Counted from the first letter of the stretch, positions 1,610 to 24,730 are shown. The stretch: DNA of 64,000 nt from an uncultured virus (IMG/VR IMGVR_UViG_3300042934_000632) (IMGVR_UViG_3300042934_000632), one strand, 5' to 3'. Program-made: numbers and translations. Notes: a model not told the origin generated them from the sequence alone.

Positions 1610-3289
1610 ATGTCCTGGAAAAAAGTAAGTGACATCGTAAAAGACAGCCTGATTGATTTGAGGGGTGTCGAGTACAAGGTGATCGAGAACAAACATTCCG
1701 ATCTTCTTGTGGCTAAAGTCAGTAACCCTGCATTCGTACTCAGCTTAGAGACACTGATTGATATCGTTCAAAATGACGACTGGGAAGGATCGGCACATGA
1801 GATTTACGTGAAATCCGAACCCAAACCGCAGATTCCGCAATATACCGCGGCAAGAAAGCCAGGCGTTCAAGAGGACTTTGTTCATTCAGAGATTCAATCT
1901 CGGTTTGCAGCCAAAGGCCCTTCGCTTGAAGATCAGCTGAAAGCTGCAACAGCAGGTACGACACCAGAACGCAAGGTATTTGCAACTGCCGTAGCAGGTC
2001 CAAGCCTTGAAGATCAACTCAGAGCAGCTAGAACCGAATCTGGAATCTCAGAAGTTCGTTCCCAGCTTGCTGGAGTTGGTGTCCAAGCAGCTTCGGCAGC
2101 ACAGGGCGTTGCAAGGGTTGATCAGGCCGTTGAAAAGGTGGCTAAGCTCAATTCAGAACGTCACTACAACGTTCAAGGCCAGATGTCTCGTGTAGAAGGC
2201 TCTGTTCGTAATGTCCAGAATCAGGCTACCGAGCTTAGCTGGCATGTGCAAAGCGTGCAGGACGATGTCGAAAACGTGGTGGAACGCGTAAGTTCCTTAG
2301 AGCATCAGGCGCTCGAAGCCAGAATCAATCAAGACCTGAACACCCAAAAATCGGCGAAAGCCCAAGGAGGAAATTCTATGTCTATCAAAAAATTGCTCGG
2401 TAACTTCACAGGTCTGTTCGGTAAGGTCGAAGGTCAGTTCGCTTATTCCCCAGCTGGTCTGGCAGTTCGTAAGAACCCTAACGAATACGGCTCCAACTGG
2501 ATCGTATACGATGCTAAAACTCGCTCCCTGACTGACGTTCAAGACTTGGTTCTTGACTTCAATATCCCTGCATTCCAGCTGCCTGTCACTGAAGACGCCG
2601 TGAACGAAGGCGACATCATCCTGAACAACGGTAAATTCCAGTACGTTGTTGAGATCAATGATGGATACGTGAAAACGATCTCTCCTTCCGACAGCTCGTA
2701 CAGCAGCGTTATCCCTACCCGTAACCAGTTCCTGAACAAAACGTTCTACACTACGGTGAAGACGCTTAGTCTGGCTGGCGAAGGTGGATTCGATCCGATG
2801 TTGCTGATGGCTATGAACAAAGGCGGCGACAAGCAAGATCTGCTTCCATTCCTGCTCATGAGCGGTGGACTGGGCGGTAATGGCGCAGCTGCAACTGGCG
2901 GCATTGATCCAATGATGCTGGCTCTGATCGGTGACAACACCGAAGACTTGCTTCCATTCCTGCTTCTGCAACAGGGCGGCGTGGCTGACAAAGGTATCAA
3001 TCCTTTGATGCTGCTTCTGATGACTGACAAAGGCGGCGACTCGAAAGATAGCCTGCTTCCATTGCTCTTGATGGGTGGCGGTCTTGGTGGAGCTGGTGGC
3101 GCTCAAGCAGGTGGTATCCAGTCGATGCTTCCGTTCTTGCTCATGAGCGGTGATAAAGGCGGAGACAGCGGAATCAAAGACATCTTGATGATGCAAGCAC
3201 TGGGCGGTGGCGCTGGTTTCGGTAACCTCTTCGGTGGTACAGCACCAGCTGCAACTCCAGTAACTCCAGCGGCTCCAGCGGCTGAGTAA
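1610..3289 (+). CDS. hypothetical protein with coiled coil and C-terminal Gly-rich/LLPFLLM repeats
   Basis: 559 aa ORF, RBS GAGGAGG; repeats GPSLEDQL(K/R)AA and LLP(F/L)LLM. Confidence 0.8.
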   Translation: MSWKKVSDIVKDSLIDLRGVEYKVIENKHSDLLVAKVSNPAFVLSLETLIDIVQNDDWEGSAHEIYVKSEPKPQIPQYTAARKPGVQEDFVHSEIQSRFAAKGPSLEDQLKAATAGTTPERKVFATAVAGPSLEDQLRAARTESGISEVRSQLAGVGVQAASAAQGVARVDQAVEKVAKLNSERHYNVQGQMSRVEGSVRNVQNQATELSWHVQSVQDDVENVVERVSSLEHQALEARINQDLNTQKSAKAQGGNSMSIKKLLGNFTGLFGKVEGQFAYSPAGLAVRKNPNEYGSNWIVYDAKTRSLTDVQDLVLDFNIPAFQLPVTEDAVNEGDIILNNGKFQYVVEINDGYVKTISPSDSSYSSVIPTRNQFLNKTFYTTVKTLSLAGEGGFDPMLLMAMNKGGDKQDLLPFLLMSGGLGGNGAAATGGIDPMMLALIGDNTEDLLPFLLLQQGGVADKGINPLMLLLMTDKGGDSKDSLLPLLLMGGGLGGAGGAQAGGIQSMLPFLLMSGDKGGDSGIKDILMMQALGGGAGFGNLFGGTAPAATPVTPAAPAAE

Positions 3290-3482: not shown

Positions 3483-3656
3483 TCGAACCGACGTCGGGGC
3501 TCCTTGAAGTGATAAAGACTTCGGGAGCTCTCCTTTCTTAAAGTGACTAGATGAGGATGATGGCTGCGGGTAGGGGCAAGTTGGCTTGCTGTGTAATCTA
3601 GTTATTATTCATTCGTTTTACCCAAACCAAAACCCAAATTAGAGGAGTGTTGCATT

Positions 3657-4007
3657 ATGGCACGCACAGTACACTACGGAACTAACAAACCTTTCACTAT
3701 CTTCGACGACAAACTTTCTATCGAAGACATCAAGAAGACTATGGCCGATTATTTCCCTGAAGTTGCAAACGCTACGGCACGCGTCGAAGGCGACAACATT
3801 TACCTGGAAGTGAAGGCTGGTACGAAAGGTTCGGGACCACGTACTGTTCATTACGGCACTAACAAGCCGTTCACAATCTTTGACGAAAAGCTGTCGATTG
3901 AAGACATCAAGAAAACCATGGCTGACTACTTCCCTGAAGTAGCAAACGCCAGCGCTCGGGTTGAAGGTAACAACATCTACCTGGAAGTGAAAGCAGGCAC
4001 TAAAGGC
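3657..4007 (+). repeat. direct repeat encoding the two Ubl domains (3657-3830 and 3840-4007)
   Basis: only 3 aa differences but many synonymous nucleotide changes. Confidence 0.95.
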
Positions 4008-4022
4008 CTGATCTTGGCCTAA
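3657..4022 (+). CDS. tandem di-ubiquitin-like protein (PRTRC protein C-like, two domains ending AGTKG)
   Basis: two ~56 aa repeats each ending KAGTKG; YFPEVANA motif; upstream of E2/JAB/E1 genes. Confidence 0.8.
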   Translation: MARTVHYGTNKPFTIFDDKLSIEDIKKTMADYFPEVANATARVEGDNIYLEVKAGTKGSGPRTVHYGTNKPFTIFDEKLSIEDIKKTMADYFPEVANASARVEGNNIYLEVKAGTKGLILA

Positions 4023-4061
4023 TCTGCTTCTAGCAGAATTGGCTAGATTCTTGTAAACTAG

Positions 4062-4100
4062 GGCAGGAGGGGCTACCAAGCTCTTTCCTGCCTTTTTTTA
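4062..4100 (+). terminator. intrinsic terminator after the Ubl gene
   Basis: GGCAGGAGGGGC...GCTCTTTCCTGCC hairpin followed by a T7 run. Confidence 0.75.
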
Positions 4101-4143
4101 TGTAACTTTGGGCAAATAGACTCAAAAGGAGGTTCGGAAAACA

Positions 4144-4587
4144 ATGGATGAAATCTTAATTACTAGTATTAATGGTGTACCCATCAACAGAGCAGTCCCA
4201 CTCACCACAGAAGAGGTTTTCTTCGGAGAAGATGATCAAGTTGAAGGCGGTAATGGGCTTGAGCAGGAAGCTGCAACAGCTGTAGAGCCTGAAGCACAAA
4301 AAGACGTCTGGGAAGCTAATGAATTCCAGTCCGTTTATCGTCAGCTCATTGGTCATTTCGAAACATTAGAATCCCGAGACACACTGGATAGTCGGACACG
4401 GGAACTTATGAGCTTGATTGGTGAAGCTACAACTGTTTCCGAATTTGATAGTTATAGCGATGACCAACTCAACAGTTTTCTTTCTCAGATTCATAATGTT
4501 CTTCCGCGTCTTGAAAGAAACTTTAGCCAGTTCGATTCGGATATGGCTAGATCCCGCGCAGTCGTCGCCGATATTGATTTTATTTAA
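4144..4587 (+). CDS. acidic hypothetical protein in the Ubl locus
   Basis: 147 aa, RBS AAGGAGGT. Confidence 0.75.
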   Translation: MDEILITSINGVPINRAVPLTTEEVFFGEDDQVEGGNGLEQEAATAVEPEAQKDVWEANEFQSVYRQLIGHFETLESRDTLDSRTRELMSLIGEATTVSEFDSYSDDQLNSFLSQIHNVLPRLERNFSQFDSDMARSRAVVADIDFI

Positions 4588-4601
4588 GGAGGTGTTAGGT
4601 C

Positions 4602-6230
4602 ATGACAATCGGAGTAATTGATTCAGTTACAATCGCGCAGCGTATTCGTTACATCCAAGACACAAGAGAGCTTAAGTCTAAAGGTGTTCTTGAAGAGCCA
4701 GCTCCTATACCTAGGACCGAGCAAGAATGGAAAGATACTGTTCGCGATATGGTTTTTGCATACTTAAAGAAAACATTCCCTGGATGCTACGTGCGTCCCC
4801 ACCTGGGAACTGAAATTTTTGCGCTCCGTCTCGACACGGAGATATTCATGAAAGCGGAAAAGATCAAGCAATGGTATCGCCAATCTGCATCATGGGGAAC
4901 CTGGTTCCAAAATGCTTATACCAGTTTGTCGAATATCATCACAGATCAATCTTATTTCGATCTTAACAGTGAAACTGTGAAAAAGGTCGTCGTGGACGGT
5001 GAAAATTTTATTCACGTAACCTTTAATATGACGAATATGGGCGGTTACTCCCAACGCGGCATGACGAAGATTATTGAATTGTGTGATCGTATCGTCCAAA
5101 GAGAAACCGCTCTTAGCAACCATTTTGATAATATTCAAGCCGCGATTCGTGTTGAAGAAGCAAGAAGAGAAACTGTGCGTATTGAACGCGCTCGTGTCGA
5201 GAAAGCAAAATATATCCAAGAATTATCTTCTCGATTGTTGGTGCCATTGGGATCTTATAACCCTACAGGTATTACATTCGACGATAAATTCAAGAAAAAG
5301 ATGGCGGAATGGTGCGCCGAAAACGGCCATCAACCAGTCAGAGCTCATGAAGCAACCTATAAAACAATGGTTCCAGTGGATACCGTTGTTCGTTTAATGA
5401 ACAAAGTCGGTGAAAAAGATGCTGATTGGTATGCTGTTCCACAATTCGGTGGCCATGACGTACCAGAAGGATTCAATCTGGTTACGAAAATTGGTAAAGT
5501 TACTGGCCATTCGGAAACAGAAGAGCGTTCGCGCGGTGGCGCAGCTCCGATTGTTGTTGAAAAGTTTGTTTACCTCTCTTTCGATATGAAGTATTGGGAA
5601 CATACTCTTCCAGAGAATTACAGGGAAATTCTTGAAGCGACCCTTCGGATTGAAGAGGAATCTAAGATCGAGTTTGAGCGCGAAGAAGCAATTCGTGAAG
5701 CAGAACGTAAACGTCGTGAAGAAATCGCTTTGCGTGTACAGACGGCGAAGAATCAGATTCGAGAGGAGATCAAGAGAAAAAAGGACTTAGCCAAAGAAGC
5801 TTATTACCAAAGCGTCAGAGAACTGGACATCGAGATGGAAAAGCTTATCAGCGAAATCGTGATCGAAGAACCGCCGTCAAGTCCAGAGATTGAAGCTCAA
5901 GCCTCGCTGCCTTCTTTCGAAGAATTCCTTGCGGGGTTGAAGCCAGTAGCAAAATCATCTTCAGCTGATCAGCTTGACGAAGATATCATGGATGTTCTGA
6001 AGAAGATTAATCACGGCAGAGGTGCCTACTACAACGATAGAGCTGTTCCTTGGGAAAAGTTTGTCGCTGTTCACGGGCCATCGAGAACTATCCGAAAATG
6101 TTTCCCAACTCTTGAGAAGATGAAGGACTACGTCCGAGAACAAGGTTTCTCTGCTCTTACACTGAGGGATTTTGAAAAAGGCGTGTTCGACTATCTTGAT
6201 CCTACGCAGAAGATCTGCGAATATAATTAA
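4602..6230 (+). CDS. large hypothetical protein with coiled-coil segments, Ubl locus
   Basis: 542 aa, RBS AAGGAGGTG. Confidence 0.75.
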   Translation: MTIGVIDSVTIAQRIRYIQDTRELKSKGVLEEPAPIPRTEQEWKDTVRDMVFAYLKKTFPGCYVRPHLGTEIFALRLDTEIFMKAEKIKQWYRQSASWGTWFQNAYTSLSNIITDQSYFDLNSETVKKVVVDGENFIHVTFNMTNMGGYSQRGMTKIIELCDRIVQRETALSNHFDNIQAAIRVEEARRETVRIERARVEKAKYIQELSSRLLVPLGSYNPTGITFDDKFKKKMAEWCAENGHQPVRAHEATYKTMVPVDTVVRLMNKVGEKDADWYAVPQFGGHDVPEGFNLVTKIGKVTGHSETEERSRGGAAPIVVEKFVYLSFDMKYWEHTLPENYREILEATLRIEEESKIEFEREEAIREAERKRREEIALRVQTAKNQIREEIKRKKDLAKEAYYQSVRELDIEMEKLISEIVIEEPPSSPEIEAQASLPSFEEFLAGLKPVAKSSSADQLDEDIMDVLKKINHGRGAYYNDRAVPWEKFVAVHGPSRTIRKCFPTLEKMKDYVREQGFSALTLRDFEKGVFDYLDPTQKICEYN

Positions 6231-6242
6231 GGAGGATTTACC

Positions 6243-7022
6243 ATGGCAAATGAATCTGTTCAAGCTCCAGCTCCGACGGCTGCAACACCGAAAATTACCA
6301 TTGAAATTATGGCAGACCATGCACAAATTACCACCGTGAAAAACGGTGTTCATGCAGTTAAAAGTACAACTCTTGCGGATATTCAAAGCGTTCTTGTTCG
6401 TGACCGTTCACTTGAGACTCCCCTTCTTCCAGGGGAGTTTGGAACTCAGAAGTATATCGCTTCAGGTTCCCGTGAATTGTACGCAGTAACGACTCCTGAG
6501 CATATTCGCAAGGTGACTTTCGATGCTCGTGGAGATGGCCGCGGACTTGTTGAATACAAGATTCCAGTTCCATCAATGCTCTGGATCATGATCGTTAATT
6601 GTAAGGACAATCGTCGTAGTTTGCATCACACCATGGCGTACGCAATTCGGAATCCTATCCTTAGTGAAAGAGATCCGATGTACGTATTCCCGTTCTCTAA
6701 TGTGAATCATGAGTACTGCTGCTGGGGTGAAAATGAAGTTTCGATCAGCATCCCAAAAAGTATTCAAACGATCCCTGATCAGTTCATGTCGGGCTACTTT
6801 AACAGTGATCTTGACGGCAATAAATTCCAATCATTCGATTGGAAGAAAAATGACCGTGTGATTTCCGCATTCCGTACGAGTCATTTCTTTGAATATCTGG
6901 ACGAAGAACAGAAGAAAGCTGAAGCCGACGGCAAGAACGCGGAATTCAAGTGGGATGCTCTTCATTCTGCTAATAAGAACTTCGCAGAAGCCATTGCTCA
7001 AGAAGCTCGGCGCTTAGGCTAA
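6243..7022 (+). CDS. prokaryotic E2-like protein (Prok-E2_D / PRTRC protein B-like)
   Basis: TPLLP and FPFSNV...CCWG motifs, F...FNSDL; gene context. Confidence 0.75.
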   Translation: MANESVQAPAPTAATPKITIEIMADHAQITTVKNGVHAVKSTTLADIQSVLVRDRSLETPLLPGEFGTQKYIASGSRELYAVTTPEHIRKVTFDARGDGRGLVEYKIPVPSMLWIMIVNCKDNRRSLHHTMAYAIRNPILSERDPMYVFPFSNVNHEYCCWGENEVSISIPKSIQTIPDQFMSGYFNSDLDGNKFQSFDWKKNDRVISAFRTSHFFEYLDEEQKKAEADGKNAEFKWDALHSANKNFAEAIAQEARRLG

Positions 7023-7167
7023 GAAGGAGAGGAATGTTGTGATCGAATACTGGAAACAGCGCTGGAATCTTGATATCGGCTTTATAACCGAATACTGGTG
7101 GTTGTATATCATTCTTGCAGTCGTATATGTTCTTGTCTTTCTTTTTATGAAAGGACGGGATTAAGAT

Positions 7168-7596
7168 ATGCCACGCAAACCTTGTATAACTCACAATGAT
7201 GTTAAAATTTGGCGGGTATACGACGGCGGAGATTCAAGAGCTTATTGGTTTGCGTGGCATCCTGGCCATACAGAGGACGGCGACGATTTCCAATTCGATG
7301 TTCGTGATCTTTCCACTTACCGTCGTAGCTATGAAGAATATATTAAACAAGGTATGTCTGCTGCAAAAGCTTACGCAGGTTATCAGTCAGATATCAGAAG
7401 ATTCATTAAGGAGGCCATTGATAAAGAAGAGATACTTCCTGATGGCCCCATCCCTCGTGATGACAACAATATTAAAGAACATCGTCCCGAAAAGCTGAAG
7501 TTAATTCGTGAAGTTTATGAAGCTAAGCGGCGGCAAACTTGGGAAGAAATGATCAATCGTTTTAATAAATCAAAATCGGAAGGAATGAGTATATAA
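7168..7596 (+). CDS. hypothetical protein
   Basis: 142 aa, stop overlaps the JAB gene start. Confidence 0.7.
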   Translation: MPRKPCITHNDVKIWRVYDGGDSRAYWFAWHPGHTEDGDDFQFDVRDLSTYRRSYEEYIKQGMSAAKAYAGYQSDIRRFIKEAIDKEEILPDGPIPRDDNNIKEHRPEKLKLIREVYEAKRRQTWEEMINRFNKSKSEGMSI

Positions 7597-8972
7597 TGAC
7601 AAAGAAAGAAAAAGCATTGGCAGCAGCAGCGGCAGCTGAAGCAACAACTGGAACAGCAACTACGGAGGTAACGGCTCCTGTTCAAACAAGAGAAGAAGCA
7701 ATGGCAGCGTTTCGTGCTCAACTTGCTGGTGAAATTTGCCAGTATGTACCATTCTCCGTTGGCTTAACTCTTGATGATGTATCGAATATGCCTACAAACG
7801 TTGTTATCGCAAAAAATGGTCTGTTTCGTGTATCCAAGACACCTATCGGTTATTTTGCAACTCAGCTGGCCGTAGGAGACGCTAAATTCGTTATTCCTGG
7901 TGTTCAGGAAATCAAGAAGGGTGTTACGCTTTCTATTCCAAAAATTCCTTTCGAGTACTGGCTGGAAGTTCTGTCATTTTATCGTGATGTATATAACAAG
8001 GATAAAACAGAAGCATCATTATTGTTCTTCTGGAATGACCGCGAAATTACATTGCCTACTGAATTCACTGATGGTACTCCGATTAAAGGTCTTTCGGAAC
8101 GCGGCCAGCTAATCATGTATTGTCCGTCCCAGAAGAATAGTAGCGGTCTTTCAAACTTCACAGCAGATACTATGGTTCCATGGCTGCGGACGAACACAAC
8201 GCCGTTACTCGAAACCCATTCTCACCATACAATGGGCGCTTTCTGGTCGTCAACGGATAATGACAATGAGAATATGAATCAGTTCTATGGCGTCTACGGT
8301 GAAATTTTGAAACCTGATCCAAAATTCCTTTTCCGTTATGTGCATGGAACAGACAAGTCGGATATTGACTTCTATGAACTGTTTGAAAAACCTGTCACTA
8401 TTACTCAGGTTATCATCGGCGATAAAGTAATTGATATTCAAAATGCCGTAGAATACAAAGGTCCATGGCCAAATCTTGAATATCCTGCTGACTGGATGGA
8501 GAAACACGCTGTTAGTTACACAGTGACTCCCAGTTATGGCGGCGCAGCGGGTGGATATGGACGTGGCGGCCAGGGCGGTGGATACGGTCAAAATAATGGA
8601 TATGGTTATGGCGGCGGCGCAAGCGGGTACGGACGCGGTGGTCTTGGCTATGATGATGACTATGTTGCAAGCCAATATCGTGCAGGAGCTGGAGGAACCG
8701 CAGGTGCTGCGGGACAAGCCAAGCTGCTTGAATTCGATGAGAGCAAAAAAAACACCGTGGACGGGGAGGACGTGGCCGATCTGACCGACGGAGTGGTCAA
8801 AAAGGTTATCGAAACAAAAACAAGCACCGTTGAGATCGTGGCCTTGCAAAGATTGTCCCCCTTTTCCGAAAAGCAGATTTTTTCGCTTTGTGAGGAATTG
8901 TCAGAGATGGGCTACGACCAAGTTATTCACGGGACGATCCAAGCGATGATTGGAATGACGGAGGAGGCGTAA
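7596..8972 (+). CDS. JAB/MPN metallopeptidase (PRTRC protein A-like) with Gly/Tyr-rich tail
   Basis: E...ETHSHHTMGAFWSSTDNDNE (JAMM HSH-x7-S-x2-D). Confidence 0.85.
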   Translation: MTKKEKALAAAAAAEATTGTATTEVTAPVQTREEAMAAFRAQLAGEICQYVPFSVGLTLDDVSNMPTNVVIAKNGLFRVSKTPIGYFATQLAVGDAKFVIPGVQEIKKGVTLSIPKIPFEYWLEVLSFYRDVYNKDKTEASLLFFWNDREITLPTEFTDGTPIKGLSERGQLIMYCPSQKNSSGLSNFTADTMVPWLRTNTTPLLETHSHHTMGAFWSSTDNDNENMNQFYGVYGEILKPDPKFLFRYVHGTDKSDIDFYELFEKPVTITQVIIGDKVIDIQNAVEYKGPWPNLEYPADWMEKHAVSYTVTPSYGGAAGGYGRGGQGGGYGQNNGYGYGGGASGYGRGGLGYDDDYVASQYRAGAGGTAGAAGQAKLLEFDESKKNTVDGEDVADLTDGVVKKVIETKTSTVEIVALQRLSPFSEKQIFSLCEELSEMGYDQVIHGTIQAMIGMTEEA

Positions 8973-9018
8973 TTGCCTCCTGTTTTTCTTTACTAAAAAT
9001 TGATCGGAGGAATGGAAA

Positions 9019-9981
9019 ATGGATTTTGAATTGAAAAATAACTTCGTATTGGATGTAAAAGCAAATGAACCAAAACATTTTGTACTGATCGGTTGCGGCG
9101 GTAATGGCGCATATTTCATTCGGGACTTCATTCGTCAAGTTGCTATTCAAAACATGCAAATGTCTATGTCTTTGGATAAACGTTCGCACTGCGTTACTGT
9201 TATCGATGCCGACGAAGTTGAAGACAAGAATTTGACTCGTCAAAACTTCGTACAGAAGGACGTCGGATCTAATAAATCACAGATTCTTGCAAATCGTTAC
9301 GGTTCAGCTTTCGGCGTACCGATTCGGTATGTGCCCGAATATATTCAGAACGAAGAGCATCTTTTGTCTATCATTCAGGGACAACCAGGAACGCCTGTCA
9401 TCCTCGGAGCTGTCGATAACAATAAGACCCGTAAGATCATCTATGATACCTATAAGAAGCTCAGCGGAGCCTTCTGGATCGATGCTGGTAACGAGCAATA
9501 TGCAGGCCAGGTTGTTTGTGGGTATAACTACCCTAGCGCACCTGACACAAGCAAAGCTCGGGAACCTCATCAGTTCTATATGCCTTGTGCAATTGATATT
9601 TATCCTGAAATCGCTGAAGCAACAGATAAACTTCCTGGTGAATTGTCCTGCGCAGAACGTTCAGTATCTGCACCGCAGAACATTTTCACAAATATCACAG
9701 CTGCAACAATCATGATGGGATTTGCGAATATCATTCTCACCGCATCGAATGTTGCTGAAGGCGAAGGACTTCGCTGTCATGCTGTAACTTTCAATACTCA
9801 TAATACCATCGCTCAGACTACTCGATTGAATCATGAAGATTTATTAGCTGCACGCTATGTAGCTCCTCCTGTAGCTGAAGCACCAGAAGCTCCAGTCCCT
9901 ACACCAGCGGTGAAGAAACCTGCATCCAAGAAAAAGAAAGCTCCTGCATCCGCTGCTCCTGTTCCTGCACCAACAGCATAA
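9019..9981 (+). CDS. ThiF/E1-like adenylyltransferase (PRTRC type)
   Basis: LIGCGGNG, DADEVEDKNLTRQ, GAVDN..TR, WIDAGN, LSCAE. Confidence 0.9.
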   Translation: MDFELKNNFVLDVKANEPKHFVLIGCGGNGAYFIRDFIRQVAIQNMQMSMSLDKRSHCVTVIDADEVEDKNLTRQNFVQKDVGSNKSQILANRYGSAFGVPIRYVPEYIQNEEHLLSIIQGQPGTPVILGAVDNNKTRKIIYDTYKKLSGAFWIDAGNEQYAGQVVCGYNYPSAPDTSKAREPHQFYMPCAIDIYPEIAEATDKLPGELSCAERSVSAPQNIFTNITAATIMMGFANIILTASNVAEGEGLRCHAVTFNTHNTIAQTTRLNHEDLLAARYVAPPVAEAPEAPVPTPAVKKPASKKKKAPASAAPVPAPTA

Positions 9982-11093: not shown

Positions 11094-11417
11094 GTGATCG
11101 TTATGAGTATGGAAGGTATTCTTAAATTCTATCCAGAAGGTTCTATTATCTGGAAAGGAAAACACGATACAAGAGATAATTACTGTTTTATTAAAGTAGT
11201 AAATCGTGAAAGTGGTTGCTCAATCCCTAAAGAATGTTATGAATATTTACACAAAATAGGATTAGGTGAGTTTACTCATGAAGGTAGAAGTTGGCCCTAT
11301 ACGTTGAGTAAAGGCTGGTCTACTATGGTAGATAGTCTCGACGGTATAGAAGTGGTTCCGCCTTTTCATATAAATAATGATACTCTTATCCATATGCTTT
11401 TGGACGAGGAGGATTAA
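11094..11417 (+). CDS. paralogue family A member with C-terminal tag
   Basis: IIWKG...CSIPKECYEYL; ends NDTLIHMLLDEED. Confidence 0.7.
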   Translation: MIVMSMEGILKFYPEGSIIWKGKHDTRDNYCFIKVVNRESGCSIPKECYEYLHKIGLGEFTHEGRSWPYTLSKGWSTMVDSLDGIEVVPPFHINNDTLIHMLLDEED

Positions 11418-11420
11418 TCT

Positions 11421-11762
11421 ATGCGTCCTAATGATTATATTACAAAATATGTTCCTGACGGAGCAATTGTCTGGGCAGGTTTGGACCCAAGTTCTTCATA
11501 CGAAACATATTGCAAGATTTATGTTTACACCTGGAGGGCTTTTGATGAGTGTTATATCCCAGATGAATGTGCCAAATATTTAAAGCGTATGGGACTGCAA
11601 GATTATATTTACCGTGACCCACATTCTAATGGTTATTTAAAAGGCGAATATCGTTTAATGGGTGGATATTATACTTCTTGTGATAGAATGACATATGAAA
11701 CTGTTTATTCTTTTAACAATTCAACTGCTATTACTTTTTTACCAGATTTGGAGGAGCACTAA
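11421..11762 (+). CDS. paralogue family A member with C-terminal tag
   Basis: IVWAG...CYIPDECAKYL; ends NSTAITFLPDLEEH. Confidence 0.7.
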   Translation: MRPNDYITKYVPDGAIVWAGLDPSSSYETYCKIYVYTWRAFDECYIPDECAKYLKRMGLQDYIYRDPHSNGYLKGEYRLMGGYYTSCDRMTYETVYSFNNSTAITFLPDLEEH

Positions 11763-12064
11763 TGAATAGTATAGCTGACTTCTTTCCAGTTAAAAGTGTA
11801 CTTTGGTCGGGGTTGTCACCGATAGTTAATAGTACCTGTCATATCGAAGTTTGTAGTGACCCTTCCCACCACTGCTATATACCTCCAGAATGTGCTAAAT
11901 TTTTAATAAGCATGGGGTATAAAGAATGCATAGTGGAAGATTATTACTCCTGGGAATACGCTTTAAGAGGAGGATTCCATGTAGGTGGCTTAAAAGAACC
12001 AACAGTCACTTTTAAACAAATCTCCAATTCTACTTTTGCAGAATTTTTGAAAGATACTGAATGA
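11762..12064 (+). CDS. paralogue family A member with C-terminal tag
   Basis: VLWSG...CYIPPECAKFL; ends NSTFAEFLKDTE. Confidence 0.7.
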   Translation: MNSIADFFPVKSVLWSGLSPIVNSTCHIEVCSDPSHHCYIPPECAKFLISMGYKECIVEDYYSWEYALRGGFHVGGLKEPTVTFKQISNSTFAEFLKDTE

Positions 12065-13677: not shown

Positions 13678-14073
13678 ATGAATTACCTTGATCCACGAGA
13701 AGGAAAAGAAATCACAGGTAGTACGGGGGAAATCCGCGTCAGACTCGTTGGTGGATCATTTCATGAATCTGCCTTTGCTACTGTTAAAGAGGGGGACGAA
13801 GTTACCCTTCAAAAAGAACCCAAAAATAAATATGACAGATATGCTATTGTAGTGCTCTCTGAAAATAACCGTGTTTTGGGTTATATTGCCAATAGAGTAG
13901 AAACTATTGGGAGAAACAAAGCAACAAATTCCGCAGCGGATGTATATAGACATATCAACGATAGAACATCAGCTATCATAATTGATAAGAGTCCAAGCTC
14001 TGCCGTACTTTTGATTAATGCTTCGAATGAAGTTTTTTTAAATAGATTAAAGGAGGAGAAGTTCGATGATTAA
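13678..14073 (+). CDS. HIRAN domain protein
   Basis: LQKEPKNKYDRYAIVV...LGYI motif. Confidence 0.8.
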   Translation: MNYLDPREGKEITGSTGEIRVRLVGGSFHESAFATVKEGDEVTLQKEPKNKYDRYAIVVLSENNRVLGYIANRVETIGRNKATNSAADVYRHINDRTSAIIIDKSPSSAVLLINASNEVFLNRLKEEKFDD

Positions 14074-14359
14074 TTCTAGATCATCTTCTTTAGTAGAATT
14101 AATAGAGATGTCTCTCTTAGCTAATCACGAAATTCTAGTTCTTTTATCTCGTAACTCTGGTTTTAGTTCACAAGCTGGAGAAAAAGAAGTAGGTCGTATT
14201 TTAAAATCTATTGGTTATATGAACGAACCTTGGTTTAAAGTTGAATGGAGCATCAGAAGAACTACCAACAATTATCCATTAGAGGATCTTATCATTATTT
14301 CTTCAACGGACTTTAATAATGAAAATCTTTCTAAGATTTATCTTAGAGATATGGATTAG
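14066..14359 (+). CDS. paralogue family B member with C-terminal tag
   Basis: WFKVEW...NNYPLEDLI. Confidence 0.65.
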   Translation: MINSRSSSLVELIEMSLLANHEILVLLSRNSGFSSQAGEKEVGRILKSIGYMNEPWFKVEWSIRRTTNNYPLEDLIIISSTDFNNENLSKIYLRDMD

Positions 14360-14373
14360 GAGGTTCGTTCTAT

Positions 14374-14655
14374 ATGATTACAGAAGAAATTATTTTAAGC
14401 CATATTCGTCATGGAAAAGTGATAGAAGTTTTGCTATCTCGATATTCTGAATACGCTGAACAAGCAAAAGAAGATGAAATCGGAAAAATTACTGGCAAAC
14501 TGGATGATGATGGTGATCTTGAAGGTATATGGTTTCAAGTCGAATGGGATTCAGGCGATGTGAATTATTATCATTTATCAGATCTGATTTTCATTAATTT
14601 TTCTACGGATAATTACAGTATGCTTTCTCTTCTCCAAGATATCGACGACGTATAA
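14374..14655 (+). CDS. paralogue family B member with C-terminal tag
   Basis: WFQVEW...NYYHLSDLI; ends NYSMLSLLQDIDDV. Confidence 0.7.
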   Translation: MITEEIILSHIRHGKVIEVLLSRYSEYAEQAKEDEIGKITGKLDDDGDLEGIWFQVEWDSGDVNYYHLSDLIFINFSTDNYSMLSLLQDIDDV

Positions 14656-14795
14656 AGTAAAGTCACAATAGGATTTATACGCTTCGATATAGTCAAGACC
14701 CGTAGTCTATTACTGGGTTGAAGCCACGTAACCTTCCATCGGAAACGTGGCTGTCTATAAATCTGCCGAAGATCCTATTGTGACTTTACTTTATA
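14651..14795 (+). ncRNA. hairpin cassette with UAUAC/CGAA internal loop
   Basis: 25 bp closing stem TATAAAGTAAAGTCACAATAGGATT / GATCCTATTGTGACTTTACTTTATA. Confidence 0.65.
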
Positions 14796-14812
14796 ATAAG
14801 GTGGGAACATTT

Positions 14813-16972
14813 ATGAGAACGTTAGTCCTTACTCGTGGTATAATGGCTTCTTCAAAATCAACATGGATTGCTGAAAATGGTCTTGCACCTTTTACTTTAT
14901 CTAGTGATAACTTGCGTCTACTCCATTCTGCTCCACAGCTTCAAGAAGATGGCAAGCAGGTAATAGCGGGATCGCAAGAAGGTAAGATCTGGAAACTTTT
15001 ATTTGAAGTTTTGGAGCGACGTATGCAAAACGGCGATTTTACCGTCATTGATGCAACACATATTACTTCGAGTTCCATTTCTGAGTATCGTGAACTGGCT
15101 AATAAATATCGTTATCGCGTGTTTGTAGTGGATTTTACTAATGTTCCTTTGGAAATAGCTTTAGAGCGGAATAAAAATCGTGAAGAATATAAGTATGTTC
15201 CAGAACATAAGATTGAAATAGCTTATGCTAAGCTTTCAGAAAATCATGTGCCTTCTTATGCGAAAGTTATTAAACCAGAAGAATTCTGGGATCATGTTTC
15301 ATATACAAAAATTGATTACAGCTCTTATCGCAAAATTCATCATATCGGGGATGTTCATGGATGCTACAGTGCATTAATGACTTACCTTTCAGGCGAAATG
15401 AAGGAAGACGAGTTGTATATTTTTGTTGGTGATTATCTAGACCGCGGCATTCAGAACCGCGAAGTTTTAGAATTCCTCATTCAGATTAAAGACCTTCCAA
15501 ATGTTATTCTTCTTGAAGGTAATCATGAAACTCATCTTCGCAAATGGTCAATGGATGAAACCGTTAAAAGTTTAGCATTCAACCACTATACCGAAAAAGA
15601 GATTCATGATGTTAATAAGTCCGCTGTTCGTGAACTGTGCAGAAAGTTCAGACAGGTTTGTTATTATGAATATTACGGCAAAACAGTGCTCGTCACTCAT
15701 GGAGGCTTATCCTGCATTCCAAACGAACTTGCTTTGATCTCGACTTCTCAATTTATTAAAGGAGTAGGAAATTATGAAGTTGATATTGATGCTATTTTCT
15801 CGGCTTCTGAACAAGATGGAACGTACCAGGTCCATGGTCATCGCAACATCTTCAGACTGCCTATGCAAGCCGCTGAGCGTTCTTTTAACCTGGAGGGTAG
15901 AGTTGAATCAGGAGGAGACTTAAGGGCTCTTACACTAACTCCTGAGGGGTTTCAAGAGCATTGTATCCAGAATCATGTTTTTACAACAGAACATTCTCCA
16001 ATGCCTCCCGTTGTAGGTTCCAAAACAACTACAGACAATTTCATTGAATACCTTCAGTCACACAAAATGGTTAAAGAAACACAGATAACTGATCATATTT
16101 CATCTTTTAACTTTACACGTAAAGCATTCAATGATGGCGTTTGGGATACGCTTAACATCAAGGCTCGCGGCCTTTTTGTGAATAAGCATACTCGAAAGAT
16201 CGTTAGCCGATCTTATGATAAGTTTTTTAATATTGACGAAGTTCCAGCTACAAAGATGGGAACATTAGCCAATACCCTGGAATTTCCTGTGATTTTGTCA
16301 GAAAAACCGAATGGATACCTAGGTATTATCGGGTATGATGAGGAGACAGATGAACTGATCTACTCTTCCAAGTCTGAAACTCGTGGTACTTATGCGGTAT
16401 CATTCAGAAAACTTTTCGAAGAAAAAGTTCCTGTTGAAATACGTGCTTGGCTTAAAGGATATCTTTACGGAAATGACGTGTCGATAACTTTTGAGGTTAT
16501 TCTTCCACAAGAAGATCCACACATCATAGAATATAAAGAGAATACTTTGATCTTACTCGATATTATCCAGCGAAATGTTCAGTTCCAAAAGAGATCTTAT
16601 TCCGAGGTTGTTGAGCTCGCAATGAATCTTCTTCTTCCATATCGTAAAATCAAATATGTCTTCCATAACTGGTTAAGTTTCTATCACTGGTATCAAAACG
16701 CATCTCAAGATTATTCTGTTAAAGAAGAAGGGTATGTCCTTGAAGATAATTCAGGTTTTATGACAAAGATAAAATTACCGTACTATCTTTTCTGGAAGCA
16801 AATGCGTACAGCAAAATTCCAGGTGAAGATGGAGGGCTATATGCTTCCTCAGTGGTTGCCGCCAATTCCTGACGATCTTAAAAATTTCGTTGGGTGGGCT
16901 AAACAGCAAGATCAGGAGTATTTGAAACGCGTGGATGTTATCCAGTTGCGTACAGATTACGAGGGCTCTTAA
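14813..16972 (+). CDS. Pnkp-like RNA repair enzyme: kinase + metallophosphoesterase + RNA ligase
   Basis: RGIMASSKST P-loop variant and IDAT; GDVHG/GDYLDRG/GNHE/HGG/HGH; EKPNG and EGYV...KIK ligase motifs. Confidence 0.85.
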   Translation: MRTLVLTRGIMASSKSTWIAENGLAPFTLSSDNLRLLHSAPQLQEDGKQVIAGSQEGKIWKLLFEVLERRMQNGDFTVIDATHITSSSISEYRELANKYRYRVFVVDFTNVPLEIALERNKNREEYKYVPEHKIEIAYAKLSENHVPSYAKVIKPEEFWDHVSYTKIDYSSYRKIHHIGDVHGCYSALMTYLSGEMKEDELYIFVGDYLDRGIQNREVLEFLIQIKDLPNVILLEGNHETHLRKWSMDETVKSLAFNHYTEKEIHDVNKSAVRELCRKFRQVCYYEYYGKTVLVTHGGLSCIPNELALISTSQFIKGVGNYEVDIDAIFSASEQDGTYQVHGHRNIFRLPMQAAERSFNLEGRVESGGDLRALTLTPEGFQEHCIQNHVFTTEHSPMPPVVGSKTTTDNFIEYLQSHKMVKETQITDHISSFNFTRKAFNDGVWDTLNIKARGLFVNKHTRKIVSRSYDKFFNIDEVPATKMGTLANTLEFPVILSEKPNGYLGIIGYDEETDELIYSSKSETRGTYAVSFRKLFEEKVPVEIRAWLKGYLYGNDVSITFEVILPQEDPHIIEYKENTLILLDIIQRNVQFQKRSYSEVVELAMNLLLPYRKIKYVFHNWLSFYHWYQNASQDYSVKEEGYVLEDNSGFMTKIKLPYYLFWKQMRTAKFQVKMEGYMLPQWLPPIPDDLKNFVGWAKQQDQEYLKRVDVIQLRTDYEGS

Positions 16973-17904: not shown

Positions 17905-17978
17905 ACAAGATTAACTCAGTTGGTAGAGTAGCCGCCATTATTGGAGGTCAGTCGCAGGTTCAAGTCCTGCATCTTGAA
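17905..17978 (+). tRNA. atypical tRNA-like element (aberrant anticodon arm, no CCA)
   Basis: D-arm ACTC-AGTTGGTA-GAGT, T-arm GCAGG-TTCAAGT-CCTGC, acceptor CAAGAT/ATCTTG. Confidence 0.55.
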
Positions 17979-17994
17979 AGTGGCGAAACATAAG

Positions 17995-18085
17995 TCAGTA
18001 TTCCGCAGGTATAGCTCAGAGGTAGAGCGGGGCCAGGTTGCTGGTCATGTCGCGGGTTCGATCCCCGTTATCCGTGGAATGCTGA
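17995..18085 (+). tRNA. atypical tRNA-like element with extended acceptor stem
   Basis: D-arm GCTC-AGAGGTA-GAGC, T-arm GCGGG-TTCGATC-CCCGT, 4-6 nt anticodon loop, ~17 bp closing stem. Confidence 0.55.
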
Positions 18086-18917: not shown

Positions 18918-21531
18918 ATGAGCTTATCTAGGGAAAAGGAAGTGATAGTTTACGTGACCTCGACGCAAGATTTATCTTTAGCCGCTGCGAAAGAAGAGCG
19001 GGGAGTCAGTTCACAACGCTTTACGCATCTTCATCTGCACACACCAGGTAGTTTGCTAGATGGATTTTGTCGTATAGCTGATCTAGTAAAACTCGCTAAA
19101 GAATTTGGTATGGACGCCGTGGGTATTAGTGACCATGGAAATTGCCATTCTCATGTCGAGTTTTTTCAAGCTTGTAAAGAAGCAGGAATTAAACCAATTA
19201 TGGGTATGGAAGGTTATATTACGCCTCACCGTAGTTGGAAAAAACCTGAGTTTACAGCCAAGCATTACAAAAAGCTTTCCTATCGTTATCGCACTAAAGC
19301 AGAGATGCAAGAAGACGGCGCGGAACAAATCGTTATGGATGGCAAGAATCTCGTTCCTAATGAGATCATTGATGCCTATCTCCGTAGTGAATTGGCAAGC
19401 CTAAACCGTTTGATTAAAGATGAGAGAGAAAACGGTAATGATCCAGAGCTGTTGAAGGATTTGTACGCGGCCAAGGATGATACTCGTATCTCAATCAATG
19501 CTTTGATCAGCTCAGGAGATCTTATTTATTCAGCGGTTCCTTCTCTAGCGACAGCAAATCTTTTTGAAATGCGGCCGAAGACGGCACATCTTTTAATGAT
19601 TGCACGAACGAACGAAGGATATCAGAATCTGCTTAAAATCACCAGTATTGCTCAGCTTGAGGGTGTTTATTACAAACCACGTGCTGATTATAAGTTAATT
19701 AAACAGTATGGGAAAGGCATCATTGCTACTAGTGCGTGTCTTGGCGGAGAAATCCCTCAGCTTATTCGTAAAGGGAAAGAAAGACTCGCTAAGAACATTG
19801 CACGGTTTTACCAAAGCTGCTTCGATGAGTTTTACTTTGAGCTACAACCAAGCCATTTGGAAGAGCAACACTATGTAAATGAAGTCCTGATCCGCTGGAG
19901 CGAAGAAATGGATATTCCGCTCGTTGCGACTTCAGATGCTCATATGCTGCGTCCAGAAGACCTGCCTATTCACTCCGCATTAACCAAGATTGGTAAAGCC
20001 CAAGATGATGCGGATATCAACGTTTATGAAAGCTGTTACTTCAAAAGCGCAGATGAAATGCTAGAAGGCGGAATGCCTGTAATTGCACTAGAGAATGCGT
20101 ATCTCATTTCTCAGAAGTGTAATGTTGAGCTTCCCCTCGGTAGAATTCACCTGCCTAGATTCACAGTTCCACCCGAGTATACATCAGACACCTACCTTTT
20201 AGAGCTTACAGACAATGCTTTGTTCCAGATGGCGCTCGAAAAGGATATTGATATCACCGTATATAAAGATCGTTTGAAGGAAGAACTTCTCGTTATCTTC
20301 GAGAAAGGATTTTCTGATTACTTTCTTATCGTTTGGGACTATATTGCTTTTGCGCGGCGTCAAGGCATTCTAGTAGGACCAGGCCGCGGTAGTGCAGGAG
20401 GTTCTCTTGTTGCCTATCTGCTGAAAATCACCAATATTGACCCTATCAAGTATGATCTTCTCTTCGAACGGTTCCTTGACCCTTCGCGTATGGACTTGCC
20501 CGATATTGACAGTGACTTTGATTATGTACGAAGACACGAGGTTGTTGAATATATCGCTGGAAAATATGGTCAAGATCATGTAGCTCAAGTTATTACATTC
20601 GGGTCTCTATCTTCAAAAGCGGCATTCAAAGACGTGGGCCGTATTTTAGGTATTGACCATAATATTATTAACACAATGAATAAACTAATTCCTGTTGTCT
20701 TTGGAAAGCCTTATGGCATTGACAAGGCCTTAGAAGAAGTCGAAGAATTAAGGGAGTATGAAAGACGCTATCCTGAAATGTTCGATCTTGCTCGAAAAGT
20801 TCATTCCCTGCCTCGGTCTACAGGTATTCATGCTTGTGCTCTTGTTATTACACCAGAGCCTATTGAGGAAATGGTACCCTTGATCAAGGGAAAAGCAGGA
20901 GAAATCGTTACCCAGTACGACGGCCCTACATTAGCGGAACAGTACGGTATCCTCAAGGTTGACTTGTTGGGACTGAAAAACCTATCTGTCATTGATATCG
21001 CCCGTAAGCTTGTCCTAGAGCGATATGACCGCGATATCGATCCTGATACATTAGAGTTTGATGATCCGCGCGTATTCAAGACTATTCAACAGGGGCACAC
21101 GGCGGGGCTCTTCCAAATTGAGAGCAGCGGGATGACCAAAATGTTTCAAAGTCTAAACCGCGTTACATTCGATGACCTTGTAGCAGGAATAGCTTTATAC
21201 CGTCCAGGCCCAATGCAGCATATTCCCGACTACTGTGCTCGTGCAAATGGATACACAGAGGTAACTTATCCATGTGAAGAACTGCGTCCTGTGCTAGAAA
21301 AAACGCATGGTATTGCCGTCTATCAAGAATCTATCATGGCAATGTCCAGAGTTATGGCGGGATACACAAAAGCTGAGACTACTAAGCTGCGTAAAGCGAT
21401 TTCCAAGAAAAAAGAAGAGGTTATGCGTCCAGCCTTGGATGAGCTTTTCAAACGAGTCACGATGAATGGCCACTCGGAAGAATTGGCAAAGAAAATCATC
21501 GACATCATCGAGCCTTTCGTAGGCTATGCGT
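18918..21531 (+). CDS. dnaE: DNA polymerase III alpha subunit, exon 1 (start may be GTG 18954)
   Basis: PHP HLHLHT..SLLDG, GPGRGSAGGS, PDIDSDF; ends at ...GYA-T. Confidence 0.92.
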
Positions 21532-22001
21532 TAATAGATGAACGGAAGTGTTCATGAGCGCCCTTGGCGAGCAATCGCCATTGAATAACTAGGTGAATTT
21601 AGGGGAGTCCTGGAGCAACAGTCGTGAGACAGATGTATGGTGACCCTAAGCGAAGTTTTGTGTAGATGGTGGCGGAATAGGTAGACGATAGGTCGGCTTA
21701 GTAGGTTTGGGTTGTGGTTCGAATCCACGATGCGCAATACGCGTAGACGCCGTGACGGTAAAAACCTGGCTATGTGAGGTGCAAATCCTCACCCACTATA
21801 CAAAAAACGTTCAACGACTATTCTTGAAATGGCCATGAGAATTGGCAACAGAAGTAGGGCCTATGCTTATAAAGATAGGCGGGTGAGAGTCCCTTAATCC
21901 GAAGCGCCTAGCATCCTCAGAACTTTGGGGATGGTGATATAGTCTACTCCCTCTCTGCTCGACAGAGAATTCAAAATATGGGGAAACCCAGGGTGAGATG
22001 G
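21532..22001 (+). mobile_element. group I intron without ORF (470 nt) in dnaE
   Basis: interrupts GYAF/NKSH; exon ends in U, intron ends in G; core elements GTTCAACGACTA and GATATAGTCTA. Confidence 0.85.
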
Positions 22002-22933
22002 TTAACAAATCCCACAGTGTAGCATATGCTATCGTCTGCTACATGACCGCTTACTTTAAAACATATTACCCTTTGGAGTTTATGGCGGCGTTGTTAACAG
22101 TATTTGGTAGTAATGTTAAGAAAGCAGTCCCTTATATCGCTGAATGCAAACGTATGGGATTCGAAGTATTGCCACCCGATGTAAACAAATCGGGATACGG
22201 TTTCGTAATCGAAGGCACAAATCTTCGTTTTGGCTTGAACAGCTTAAAAGGTCTTGGTGAAGTTGCGCTTGAACGCATTATAGAAGAGCGTCCTTTTGTA
22301 GATCTGGAAGATGCGATCAAACGAGTTCCGAAGAAGTTCTTGAACAAACGCGTCGTCGATGTGCTTAGCCTTTGCGGAGCCTTTGATGATCTTGCGAATG
22401 AAAAGAATCGGATGAAAATCGTTGAGAAAGCATATAAACTTCGTGGAGAGAAGAAATTTGATCTCACAAGTTTTATTGAAAACTTCGATCAAAAGGCTAA
22501 GCTTGATCATGAGAAAGCTATTCTAGGCGTCTACGTCAGTGGTCACCCACTAGATGGCTACGCTACCGCTGTCGGGCCTTGGCTTGAAAAGTCTGAAGGG
22601 GATCGATTCGATACCGCGGGAATTATTGCCGAATTCAACGTGATTAAAACCAAGAAAGGTGATGAAATGGCCTTTGTAGATTTGGATACTATCGAAGGTC
22701 TGCAAACTATTGTCATCTTCCCTCAGCAGTATTCGTCCATTCGTGGCCAGCTTGTTGAGGAACTGATCATGAAGATTACGGTTCAAGTCGAATACAATGC
22801 TGTGCGCGGCGAACGTAATTACATCGCCAAGAAGATCACGATTCCGAAGAAGATCAATAAGGGACTTTATATCCCGAAAGCTGCTTTGGAAGAAGAAGAC
22901 ACTACCAGTGAATATGAACAATGGGCACAATAG
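22002..22933 (+). CDS. dnaE: DNA polymerase III alpha subunit, exon 2
   Basis: NKSHSVAY, YPLEFMAALL, PDVNKS, RFGL, GHPL. Confidence 0.92.

Positions 22934-23211: not shown

Positions 23212-24730
<1,519 letters not shown>

Follow-up and report, generated by a model that had tools for sequence, protein, structure and literature searches.

A phage cassette that probably encodes ubiquitin-like protein conjugation, with its tag made as a polyubiquitin-like precursor

A conjugation cassette on a large phage

We analysed a stretch of 64,000 nucleotides (in its whole length, the window) from an uncultured virus, IMG/VR record IMGVR_UViG_3300042934_000632. The element is a phage of about 251 kb, and positions 3657-9981 of the window hold seven + strand genes that probably encode a lytic-cycle pathway for conjugating a ubiquitin-like protein (Ubl), belonging to the PRTRC lineage (operon type 6d of Iyer and colleagues) and making its tag as a precursor that resembles polyubiquitin. 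The proposal is built on the predicted products of four of these genes: a poly-Ubl, an E2-like protein, a JAMM peptidase and a ThiF-type E1. To our knowledge, the Ubl conjugation described so far in bacteria protects hosts from phages (type II CBASS, Bil and probably Bub); here, what looks like a complete Ubl kit lies on the virus side. A preliminary description of the window had named the same four features, and a check of open reading frames (ORFs) found each of them where it had been placed, all on the + strand:

3657-4022, +: poly-Ubl precursor, ORF of 121 amino acids (aa), two head-to-tail units and a cap
3657-3830, +: Ubl unit 1 (residues 1-58), ending AGTKG
3831-4007, +: Ubl unit 2 (residues 59-117), ending AGTKG
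4008-4019, +: four-residue cap LILA, after unit 2
6243-7022, +: E2-like protein, 259 aa, containing PFSNVNHEYCCWG; distant Prok-E2_D / PRTRC_B
6720-6722, +: candidate catalytic Cys160 of the E2-like protein, invariant in 9/9
7596-8972, +: JAMM/MPN+ peptidase (JAB), 458 aa, with an N-terminal domain, a Gly/Tyr-rich linker and a small C-terminal domain
8217-8258, +: JAMM active-site motif H208-S-H210-x7-S218-x2-D221, with E139 further upstream
9019-9981, +: ThiF-type E1, 320 aa, GCGGNG, PRTRC_ThiF lineage, single adenylation domain
9649-9651, +: candidate catalytic Cys211 of E1, within S210-C211-A212-E213

The phage origin proposed earlier is borne out. A virus record of 251,543 bp (G001), rated 100% complete, shares 94% of the window's sampled words and has identical JAB and E1, and the nearest deposited relatives by E1 are Bacillus jumbo phages (vB_BauM_KLEB27-3, Edson and vB_BceM_WH1; 44-50% identity). 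The cassette has the same gene order in five records of phages or phage-plasmids (KLEB27-3, Edson, WH1 and pBtic235 twice) and in two metagenome contigs. This recurrence, like the profile matches of E1 and JAB given below, goes beyond chance.

The tag gene encodes tandem β-grasp units with invariant Lys-Gly ends

The preliminary description reported a Ubl ending in AGTKG. The motif is present, and the gene encodes not one unit but two, each with this ending, followed by the cap. A tandem-repeat search (TRF) returned a period of 177 nt (2.0 copies, 80% matches), and a profile hidden Markov model of the Ubl unit likewise found 2 units in the gene. In the AlphaFold2 model of the di-Ubl (pLDDT 79.8), each unit has the topology β-β-α-α-β-β. 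Foldseek gave 12 PDB matches for this model at E <= 0.001, the best being linear di-ubiquitin (3b0a_D; E 3.7e-4, prob 1.00), with linear tetra-ubiquitin, a polyubiquitin from Naegleria and di-ubiquitin-derived binders also near the top. Judged by the model, the product consists of two ubiquitin-like β-grasp units, in agreement with the fold that had been expected of it. At the level of families, Pfam Prok_Ub matched the window Ubl (E 0.0023) and 15 of 21 two-unit relatives (best 1.8e-9). PRTRC_C (TIGR03738) did not match the window Ubl at E <= 0.1; the KLEB27-3 Ubl scored 61 bits over 4 stretches against this model, above the cut-off of 45.95, and that of the relative L005 scored 29.5 bits.

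At the ends of the units, K57/G58 and K116/G117 are invariant in all 21 proteins compared. Within the window gene, the unit cores differ at only 3 of 54 residues (94% identical as protein) while their DNA is only 80% identical, and where both units have the same residue (Met and Trp excluded) 28 of 50 positions use different codons, against 29.5 expected from independent draws from the codon usage of the window. Since protein identity is this high and synonymous sites are nonetheless saturated, the duplication is old at the DNA level, with both units under selection at the protein level.

We also considered selection for synonymous divergence between units, as a means of avoiding recombination. 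It is unsupported in the window (28 against 29.5 expected, z -0.4), and the same test in relatives gave a mixed result (z +3.5, +1.0, +2.1 and -5.5).

Unit number varies among the seven syntenic cassettes: 2 in the window, 3 in L005, 4 in KLEB27-3 and pBtic235, 5 in Edson and WH1, and 7 in L007. A search with a single unit against 1.84 billion representative proteins produced 47 matches at E <= 0.001, one of which (P0056; 1,496 aa, E 4.5e-4) was set aside as unrelated-looking, leaving 46 family representatives. One unit was found in eight of these, two in 22, three in five, four in three, five in seven and seven in one, making 38 of the 46 multi-unit. Nearly all units end in [AS]G[TSEV]KG or a close variant (AANKG, SNTKG), most are separated by linkers of 0-3 residues, and the C-terminal cap measures 0-20 residues.

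These layouts bear on whether the tandem Ubl is cut at all. Left uncut, it would act as a single protein of several β-grasp domains, either attached as a whole chain through its last Gly, in the manner of ISG15 and the multi-domain Bil and Bub tags, or being itself a structural or packaged virion protein. Precedents exist: in the available parts of PMC10557695 and PMC1779556, Bil and Bub tags with up to three β-grasp domains are used uncut; ISG15 is among the Foldseek matches of the di-Ubl model; and the five-unit protein of WH1 is labelled 'virion structural protein', a label whose basis could not be checked. We nevertheless consider an uncut chain rather unlikely, given that every unit, not just the last, keeps the invariant K-G end, that the units within a phage gene are near-identical whereas Bil and Bub domains differ among themselves, that unit number ranges from 2 to 7 across syntenic cassettes, that 8 of 46 representatives are single-unit tags, and that junctions have only 0-3 linker residues. 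A precursor that would be processed into single tags is the reading we prefer, and it is the one carried forward below.

Candidate catalytic residues of E1, E2 and the JAMM peptidase are invariant

The E1 matches Pfam ThiF above its cut-off (1.2e-12, 48 bits), and its best NCBIfam match is PRTRC_ThiF (TIGR03736; 1.8e-31, 109.3 bits, below the cut-off of 144.75). The GxGGxG motif and the candidate Cys in LSCAE that had been pointed out earlier are both conserved: G25, G27-G28 and G30 (GCGGNG), R39, D65, R74-Q75, D133 and S210-C211-A212-E213 are invariant in six of six aligned proteins.

The record of phage Arash labels an E1-like region 'structural protein'. We give this little weight; the source of the label, according to the available part of PMC10585845, is a 116-protein particle proteome in which ribonucleotide reductases and RNA ligases appear as well. 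The gene that directly follows E1 differs among cassettes: it encodes a NADAR-domain protein in WH1 (L014 12714-13187), an RVT_3 reverse-transcriptase-like protein in pBtic235 (L015 14457-15143) and a 5'(3')-deoxyribonucleotidase in KLEB27-3. In a distant cassette on a human-gut phage contig (L004, MT835919), whose E1 is 33% identical, the gene directly after JAB-E1 (1679-2761) encodes the sliding clamp, DNA polymerase III beta, and that of a DUF6094 methyltransferase is next; the window has no clamp gene after E1, and inspection by eye alone found no conserved QL[SD]LF-like C-terminal end in the cassette proteins.

In the E2-like protein, the NV...CWG stretch noted in the preliminary description falls within a conserved block, with P150, F151, N153 and C160-W161-G162 invariant in 9/9 family members (relatives 37-57% identical to the window protein). 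Five of the nine match Prok-E2_D (PF14460; best 2.2e-9). Four relatives were scanned with PRTRC_B (cut-off 131.45 bits), of which two gave a match, scoring 18.4 and 27.7 bits; the L005 homologue matches this model at 1.6e-6. Membership of the E2 family is thus argued from the Prok-E2_D and PRTRC_B matches of relatives and not from a structure search. An alignment of the E2 family with PRTRC_B of Ralstonia phage Dina (hhalign) was weak (E 0.23), with the P-[FY]-x-N-V...C-x-G stretch lining up. Over residues ~100-258, the protein model (pLDDT 77.8) shows a meander of four strands, a poorly modelled loop in which the PFSN...CWG stretch lies, and three helices; an extra N-terminal β domain precedes them. 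The P-F-x-N seven residues ahead of the Cys resembles what we take to be the HPN...Cys spacing of eukaryotic E2s, which is a resemblance and not a test. Pattern scans for further E2 relatives, in which only the chosen peptide patterns are visible, found none in viral_contigs (with the single protein and with alignment A1) and none in one genome per species across 185,579 species, which does not imply absence.

By its metal-site motif, the JAB is assigned as a JAMM/MPN+ metallopeptidase. The HSH-x7-S-x2-D motif that had been reported is indeed there, and E139, H208, H210, S218 and D221 are invariant in seven of seven aligned JAB proteins. Prok-JAB matched the window protein at E 0.002, and PRTRC_A at 5e-7 (29.5 bits against a cut-off of 101.8), the match covering only model positions 127-183 of 192, its C-terminal part; five relatives scored 30-44 bits with PRTRC_A (best 2e-11). 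A region of ~190 residues at the N terminus is conserved in relatives.

Between the peptidase and the small conserved C-terminal domain, the JAB has a Gly/Tyr/Arg-rich linker of low complexity (window 8500-8720; GGYGRGGQGGGYGQNNGYGYGG...), which is present in most relatives and variable in length.

Ubl and E1 might instead form an adenylation system like ThiS-ThiF or MoaD-MoeB, for sulfur carriage or another end, in which nothing is conjugated to protein. The E1 does match ThiF and MoeB models weakly (8.5e-9 to 5e-4), and the ThiS model of Pfam picks up 3 of 21 Ubl relatives (E 0.0044 at best). On the other side, neither Pfam nor NCBIfam detected a rhodanese domain in the E1, PRTRC_ThiF is its best model by >20 orders of magnitude, the E1 is always linked to a JAMM peptidase and to an E2-like protein whose Cys is invariant, and a catalytic carrier would have little need of a multi-copy precursor. 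We regard a sulfur carrier as very improbable and favour conjugation to protein.

The core proteins descend from the PRTRC class

Each core protein appears, from its profile matches and those of its relatives, to be a distant relative of a PRTRC family: the Ubl of PRTRC_C/Prok_Ub, the E2 of PRTRC_B/Prok-E2_D, the JAMM peptidase of PRTRC_A and the E1 of PRTRC_ThiF. As we understand it, the PRTRC cassette (NCBIfam TIGR03734-03742) corresponds to operon type 6d in the 2006 classification by Iyer, Burroughs & Aravind. As defined in the available part of that paper (PMC1779556), type 6d has a small Ubl with a conserved C-terminal Gly, an E2-like protein with a conserved Cys, a JAB with an extra N-terminal domain and an E1 without rhodanese, together with a conserved α-helical protein and a downstream His in the E2. 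The features compared, namely the Ubl Gly (G58/G117), the E2 Cys (C160), the N-terminal domain of the JAB (the ~190-residue region) and the rhodanese-less E1, are all found in the window. With no window protein reaching a curated PRTRC cut-off, and with ParB and PRTRC D, E and F absent, the cassette reads as a divergent variant of type 6d, descended from the PRTRC/6d class, and presumably working like it, but not a canonical member. In database annotation, PRTRC proteins are named in phage Dina and a PRTRC_A domain is noted in KLEB27-3.

Accessory genes and candidate regulatory sites

Besides the core, the cassette contains three genes on which the preliminary description is silent, and a consensus scan pointed to two candidate sites around the tag gene:

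3581-3608, +: promoter-like site TTGGCT-16-TATTAT, ~50 nt upstream of the poly-Ubl gene
4066-4087, +: terminator-like hairpin just 3' of the poly-Ubl gene, a 9-pair stem then a T-run
4144-4587, +: 147-aa gene in helper position; without a family in Pfam, NCBIfam or PADLOC, and with a single weak PHROG match (function unknown)
4602-6230, +: helper gene of 542 aa, conserved as part of the cassette, in the position of PRTRC_F in phage Dina
7168-7596, +: 142-aa gene between E2 and JAB; no family found

Promoter-like sites are no commoner in this region than in its shuffled sequence (10 found, mean 12.4 in shuffles), so that 3581-3608 is only a pointer and not evidence. The hairpin is a possible attenuator.

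The 542-aa protein is conserved by tblastn, with 31-34% identity over ~340 aa in Edson, L005 and WH1, and ORFs of the same size stand in its place in KLEB27-3, L007 and pBtic235. It has no family in Pfam, NCBIfam, PHROGs or PADLOC and no similarity to PRTRC_F; in an alignment of 5 sequences, 10 columns are invariant and a Cys/His motif is absent. Nothing usable came from the ESM Atlas (TM <= 0.27 by query), and a word-based homologue search returned only the protein itself, charged low-complexity words having crowded the candidate list. At the place of the 147-aa gene, small ORFs of 89-139 aa are found in L002, L003, L005, L007, L014 and L015, none of them similar to the 147-aa protein by tblastn at E <= 1e-3. 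The 142-aa gene had no tblastn match in any relative's cassette examined, and the gap between E2 and JAB in relatives is 31-157 nt.

A homologous cassette is induced with a lytic programme

Among 50,697 phage records, megablast detected no close DNA relative of the cassette. By tblastn, the tag was found in 3 of these 50,697 records, all Bacillus jumbo phages, and in 10 of 72,556 plasmid records, all typed non-mobilizable: eight copies of a ~235-kb plasmid from B. thuringiensis and single plasmids from B. velezensis (220 kb) and Cytobacillus (240 kb). The ~235-kb plasmid is pBtic235 of B. thuringiensis sv. israelensis, described in the available part of PMC9700832 as a circular jumbo prophage that gives plaques and virions after mitomycin C. 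Its cassette is unannotated (HIS92_RS26235-RS26250, RS24925 and RS24930), and the words ThiF and ubiquitin do not occur in the main text of that paper.

Supplementary Table S1 of the same source reports RNA-seq of strain GBJ002 with and without mitomycin C, in which all six pBtic235 cassette genes rise 16- to 40-fold upon treatment (PMC9700832, available in part). The log2 values are 5.32 for the poly-Ubl, 4.92 and 4.72, 4.49 for E2, 4.22/4.01 for JAB and 4.02 for ThiF; they are fold changes and not basal levels, and the JAB has two because the gene is split at the start of the record. The pBtic235 cassette is transcribed within the induced lytic programme, with the tag gene highest.

This expression pattern speaks to another explanation, in which the cassette is a defence or exclusion system that the phage carries and that tags structural proteins of competing phages, much as Bil does. 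Its attraction is that Bil has the same gene order, Ubl-E2-DUB-E1 (DUB, deubiquitinase), and tags a phage tail protein, according to the available parts of 10.1101/2023.09.04.556158 and PMC10557695, and that the cassette is also found on a temperate phage-plasmid. The pBtic235 genes, however, rise with the lytic programme, unlike a lysogen-expressed immunity gene (the values being fold changes only); strictly lytic-looking jumbo phages carry the cassette too; and PADLOC has no model that matches the window Ubl, E2 or JAB, its only matches for E1 being weak ones to CBASS-type E1-E2 models (3.2e-5). We hold a defence role to be quite improbable, and return to a conjugation pathway of the lytic cycle.

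A model for the pathway and what weighs against it

In the pathway that we propose, the operon would be transcribed from upstream of the tag gene, and the JAMM peptidase would cut the precursor after each Lys-Gly (G58 and G117), releasing two β-grasp tags of 58-59 residues and removing the LILA cap. The ThiF-type E1 would adenylate the terminal Gly and take the tag onto Cys211, from which it would move to Cys160 of the E2 and then to lysines of targets. The fast-evolving 147-aa and 542-aa proteins may select these targets as specificity factors, and the JAMM peptidase may also reverse tagging. With 2-7 tag copies per gene, each transcript would yield more tag than enzyme, which argues for bulk consumption, in abundant targets or in chains. 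That the tag is needed in excess over the enzymes is likewise suggested by its multiple copies together with the terminator-like hairpin, known from consensus only, and the expression gradient in pBtic235. The promoter-like site ahead of the tag gene, the hairpin behind it and the virion label of the WH1 poly-Ubl agree with the pathway but are no more than consistent with it.

Several observations weigh against this model. None of the 12 window proteins scanned against the NCBIfam PRTRC models reaches a curated cut-off. For the window E2, neither Pfam nor NCBIfam gives a match at E <= 0.1, and Foldseek finds nothing for its structural model at E <= 0.001. Alignment of that model with VIA-align did return UBC-fold chains (5ojw_B, Z 4.3, 99 residues aligned, root-mean-square deviation 3.9; 8pmq_E, Z 3.8, 121 aligned; 1yf9_C, Z 3.5, 133 of 159 residues aligned), but these rows, at Z 3.5-4.3, are mixed with many unrelated rows of similar Z, of which the top reaches 4.5. 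The label 'virion structural protein', which the WH1 record gives to both the poly-Ubl (gp211) and the homologue of window gene 1610-3289 (gp208), has a basis that could not be checked. The literature search turned up no biochemical test of any PRTRC/6d member. According to the available part of PMC11601596, the Bub pathway forms oxyesters and not thioesters; homology is no guide to the chemistry. Every catalytic step above is a prediction from sequence, and the precursor could act uncut.

The match to the PRTRC cassette drawn in the preliminary description stands for the lineage of all four proteins; it does not extend to the curated cut-offs, to a ParB gene or to the D, E and F components. 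The missing ParB partner had already been remarked upon for the window, and searches with PF02195 and TIGR03734 found 0 matches at E <= 0.01 in the whole of G001. For PRTRC D, E and F, no match was found in 12 window proteins or in 10 helper-position proteins of relatives (E <= 0.1 or 0.05). As for the profiles by which the four assignments were to be checked, ThiF and Prok-JAB match in the window itself, and Prok-E2_D and PRTRC C match in relatives.

Candidate targets

What the tag would be attached to can be ranked only tentatively. Host proteins, in takeover or counter-defence, come first, at odds well below even; the phage's own virion or assembly proteins come close behind; replication or partition proteins are unlikely, and some other target less likely still. 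The hints diverge: besides the WH1 labels there are the replication and RNA-repair genes around the cassette and the sliding-clamp gene after E1 in L004. Virion or assembly proteins have the merit that their tagging would explain the virion labels that two records give to the tag or its neighbour (if the WH1 label, whose basis could not be checked, is sound). A fuller version of this reading, in which jumbo phages of Bacillus-like hosts use a JAMM-cut multi-unit tag and a minimal E1-E2 pair for bulk tagging of their own virion or assembly proteins in lytic growth, we put forward as speculative and, taken whole, more doubtful than the target alone. If true, it would make this the first virus of prokaryotes shown with a complete Ubl conjugation cascade, and an independent invention of the polyubiquitin gene layout.

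Full-text searches found, among the matches listed, no paper on a phage-encoded E1/E2/JAB/Ubl cascade or on a phage poly-Ubl; PRTRC was mentioned in a phage context, among those matches, in PMC13366799 (Burkholderia gladioli prophages) and in a 2026 gut-microbiome preprint. The PRTRC/6d class itself has been catalogued since 2006 (PMC1779556, in its available part). New here are the Bacillus-phage branch with 2-7 units, its link to culturable phages and to pBtic235, and the published expression data for a homologous cassette. Culturable carriers include the three Bacillus jumbo phages (KLEB27-3, Edson and WH1) and pBtic235, an inducible, plaque-forming prophage of a plasmid-cured laboratory strain of B. 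thuringiensis israelensis, a biopesticide organism. A multi-copy precursor implies that much tag is consumed, and conjugates should therefore be easy to find.

Genomic setting

The window is one-directional, with nearly all long ORFs on the + strand, and these encode DNA polymerase III alpha, class I and class III ribonucleotide reductases, RecA, thymidylate synthase, a UvrD-type helicase, a primase and a kinase-phosphatase-RNA-ligase fusion. Replication and RNA-repair genes surround the cassette.

Upstream of the cassette, gene 1610-3289 (+) encodes a 559-aa protein with a coiled-coil stretch and a Gly-rich C-terminal region in which an LLPFLLM-like motif occurs ~5 times. Homologues lie directly upstream of the poly-Ubl in Edson, L005 and WH1; at the pBtic235 locus, no homologue of this gene or of window gene 166-993 was found.

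Downstream lie two groups of small tandem paralogues, recognized by eye: three genes of ~100-113 aa at 11094-12064 (+) with the common motif IPxEC-x-K/Y-L...MGL, and two of ~95 aa at 14066-14655 (+) with LLSR...E(I/V)G(K/R)I in common. The fusion gene at 14747-16972 (+) encodes 741 aa in which an AAA_33 kinase and a calcineurin-like phosphoesterase are joined to an RNA ligase domain of T4 type, making it an RNA-repair enzyme of a kind that counters anticodon nucleases; the same neighbourhood of KLEB27-3 has RNA ligase, polynucleotide kinase and phosphoesterase as separate genes. Two tRNA-like genes follow at 17905-17978 and 18005-18076 (+; Rfam 41 and 37.2 bits), of which ARAGORN called only 17905-17978, as 'tRNA-???' with anticodon (ta).

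Two genes of the window are interrupted. A group I intron at 21540-21969 (+; Rfam RF00028, 50.1 bits, at gathering score), between ORFs 18918-21557 and 21998-22933, splits the DNA polymerase III alpha gene: the upstream ORF encodes the PHP, NTPase and finger domains, the downstream one the HHH_6 part. The large subunit of the class I ribonucleotide reductase is likewise in two ORFs, 23561-24733 and 25793-26683 (window 23561-26683, +), with a GIY-YIG / I-TevI-like endonuclease ORF (24908-25504) between them; Rfam called no intron there at gathering score.

Comparison with known systems

Among the closest known arrangements is the PRTRC cassette, for which we use gp07-gp02 of Ralstonia phage Dina (NC_055026) as the example. 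It has the same core families in the same order, C(Ubl), F-position gene, B(E2), A(JAB) and ThiF. The tag ends ...G-R-K-G in Dina and ...T-K-G in the window, and because the single unit of Dina also ends in this way, a K-G end seems common to PRTRC_C. The differences lie elsewhere. The Dina tag is one unit with a 63-residue tail, whereas the large-phage cassettes have 2-7 head-to-tail units, a layout that, within our sample, appears to belong to the large-phage branch. The F position in these cassettes is filled by an unrelated protein of 466-559 aa. PRTRC is linked to ParB by its name; the phage of the window has no ParB, and here the cassette is carried on a jumbo phage.

Within the large-phage branch, the pBtic235 cassette has the same order as the window, namely a poly-Ubl (four AGTKG units), a small gene, a gene of ~526 aa, E2, JAB and E1, with identities to the window of 36% for E2, 36% for JAB and 43% for E1. 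It differs in its carrier, a temperate, circular element resembling a plasmid, and genes for RepA and Spx lie immediately upstream.

BilABCD of types I and II also has the order Ubl-E2-DUB(JAB)-E1, and in both systems the tag has residues beyond the conserved Gly, which in Bil are removed by the JAB, as described in the available part of PMC10557695. The E1s differ: BilD is a multidomain protein (IAD+AAD+CYS; same source, in part), and the phage E1 is a single adenylation domain of 320 aa. Bil is a defence-island system, in contrast to a cassette that phages carry, that rises with the lytic programme and whose Ubl, E2 and JAB have no PADLOC match.

In the layout of its tag gene, the cassette resembles the eukaryotic polyubiquitin precursor genes, which we take to be UBB, UBC and yeast UBI4. 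Common to both are near-identical head-to-tail β-grasp units without spacers, a short non-conserved cap and a variable number of units. The phage units differ from ubiquitin in sequence (~14-16% identity in the Foldseek rows), in being 58-residue units that end in K-G and not G-G, and in having saturated synonymous sites rather than homogenised DNA; the presumed processing enzyme in the phage is the JAMM peptidase of the same operon. The multi-copy precursor can thus be thought of as a prokaryotic-virus parallel to the polyubiquitin genes.

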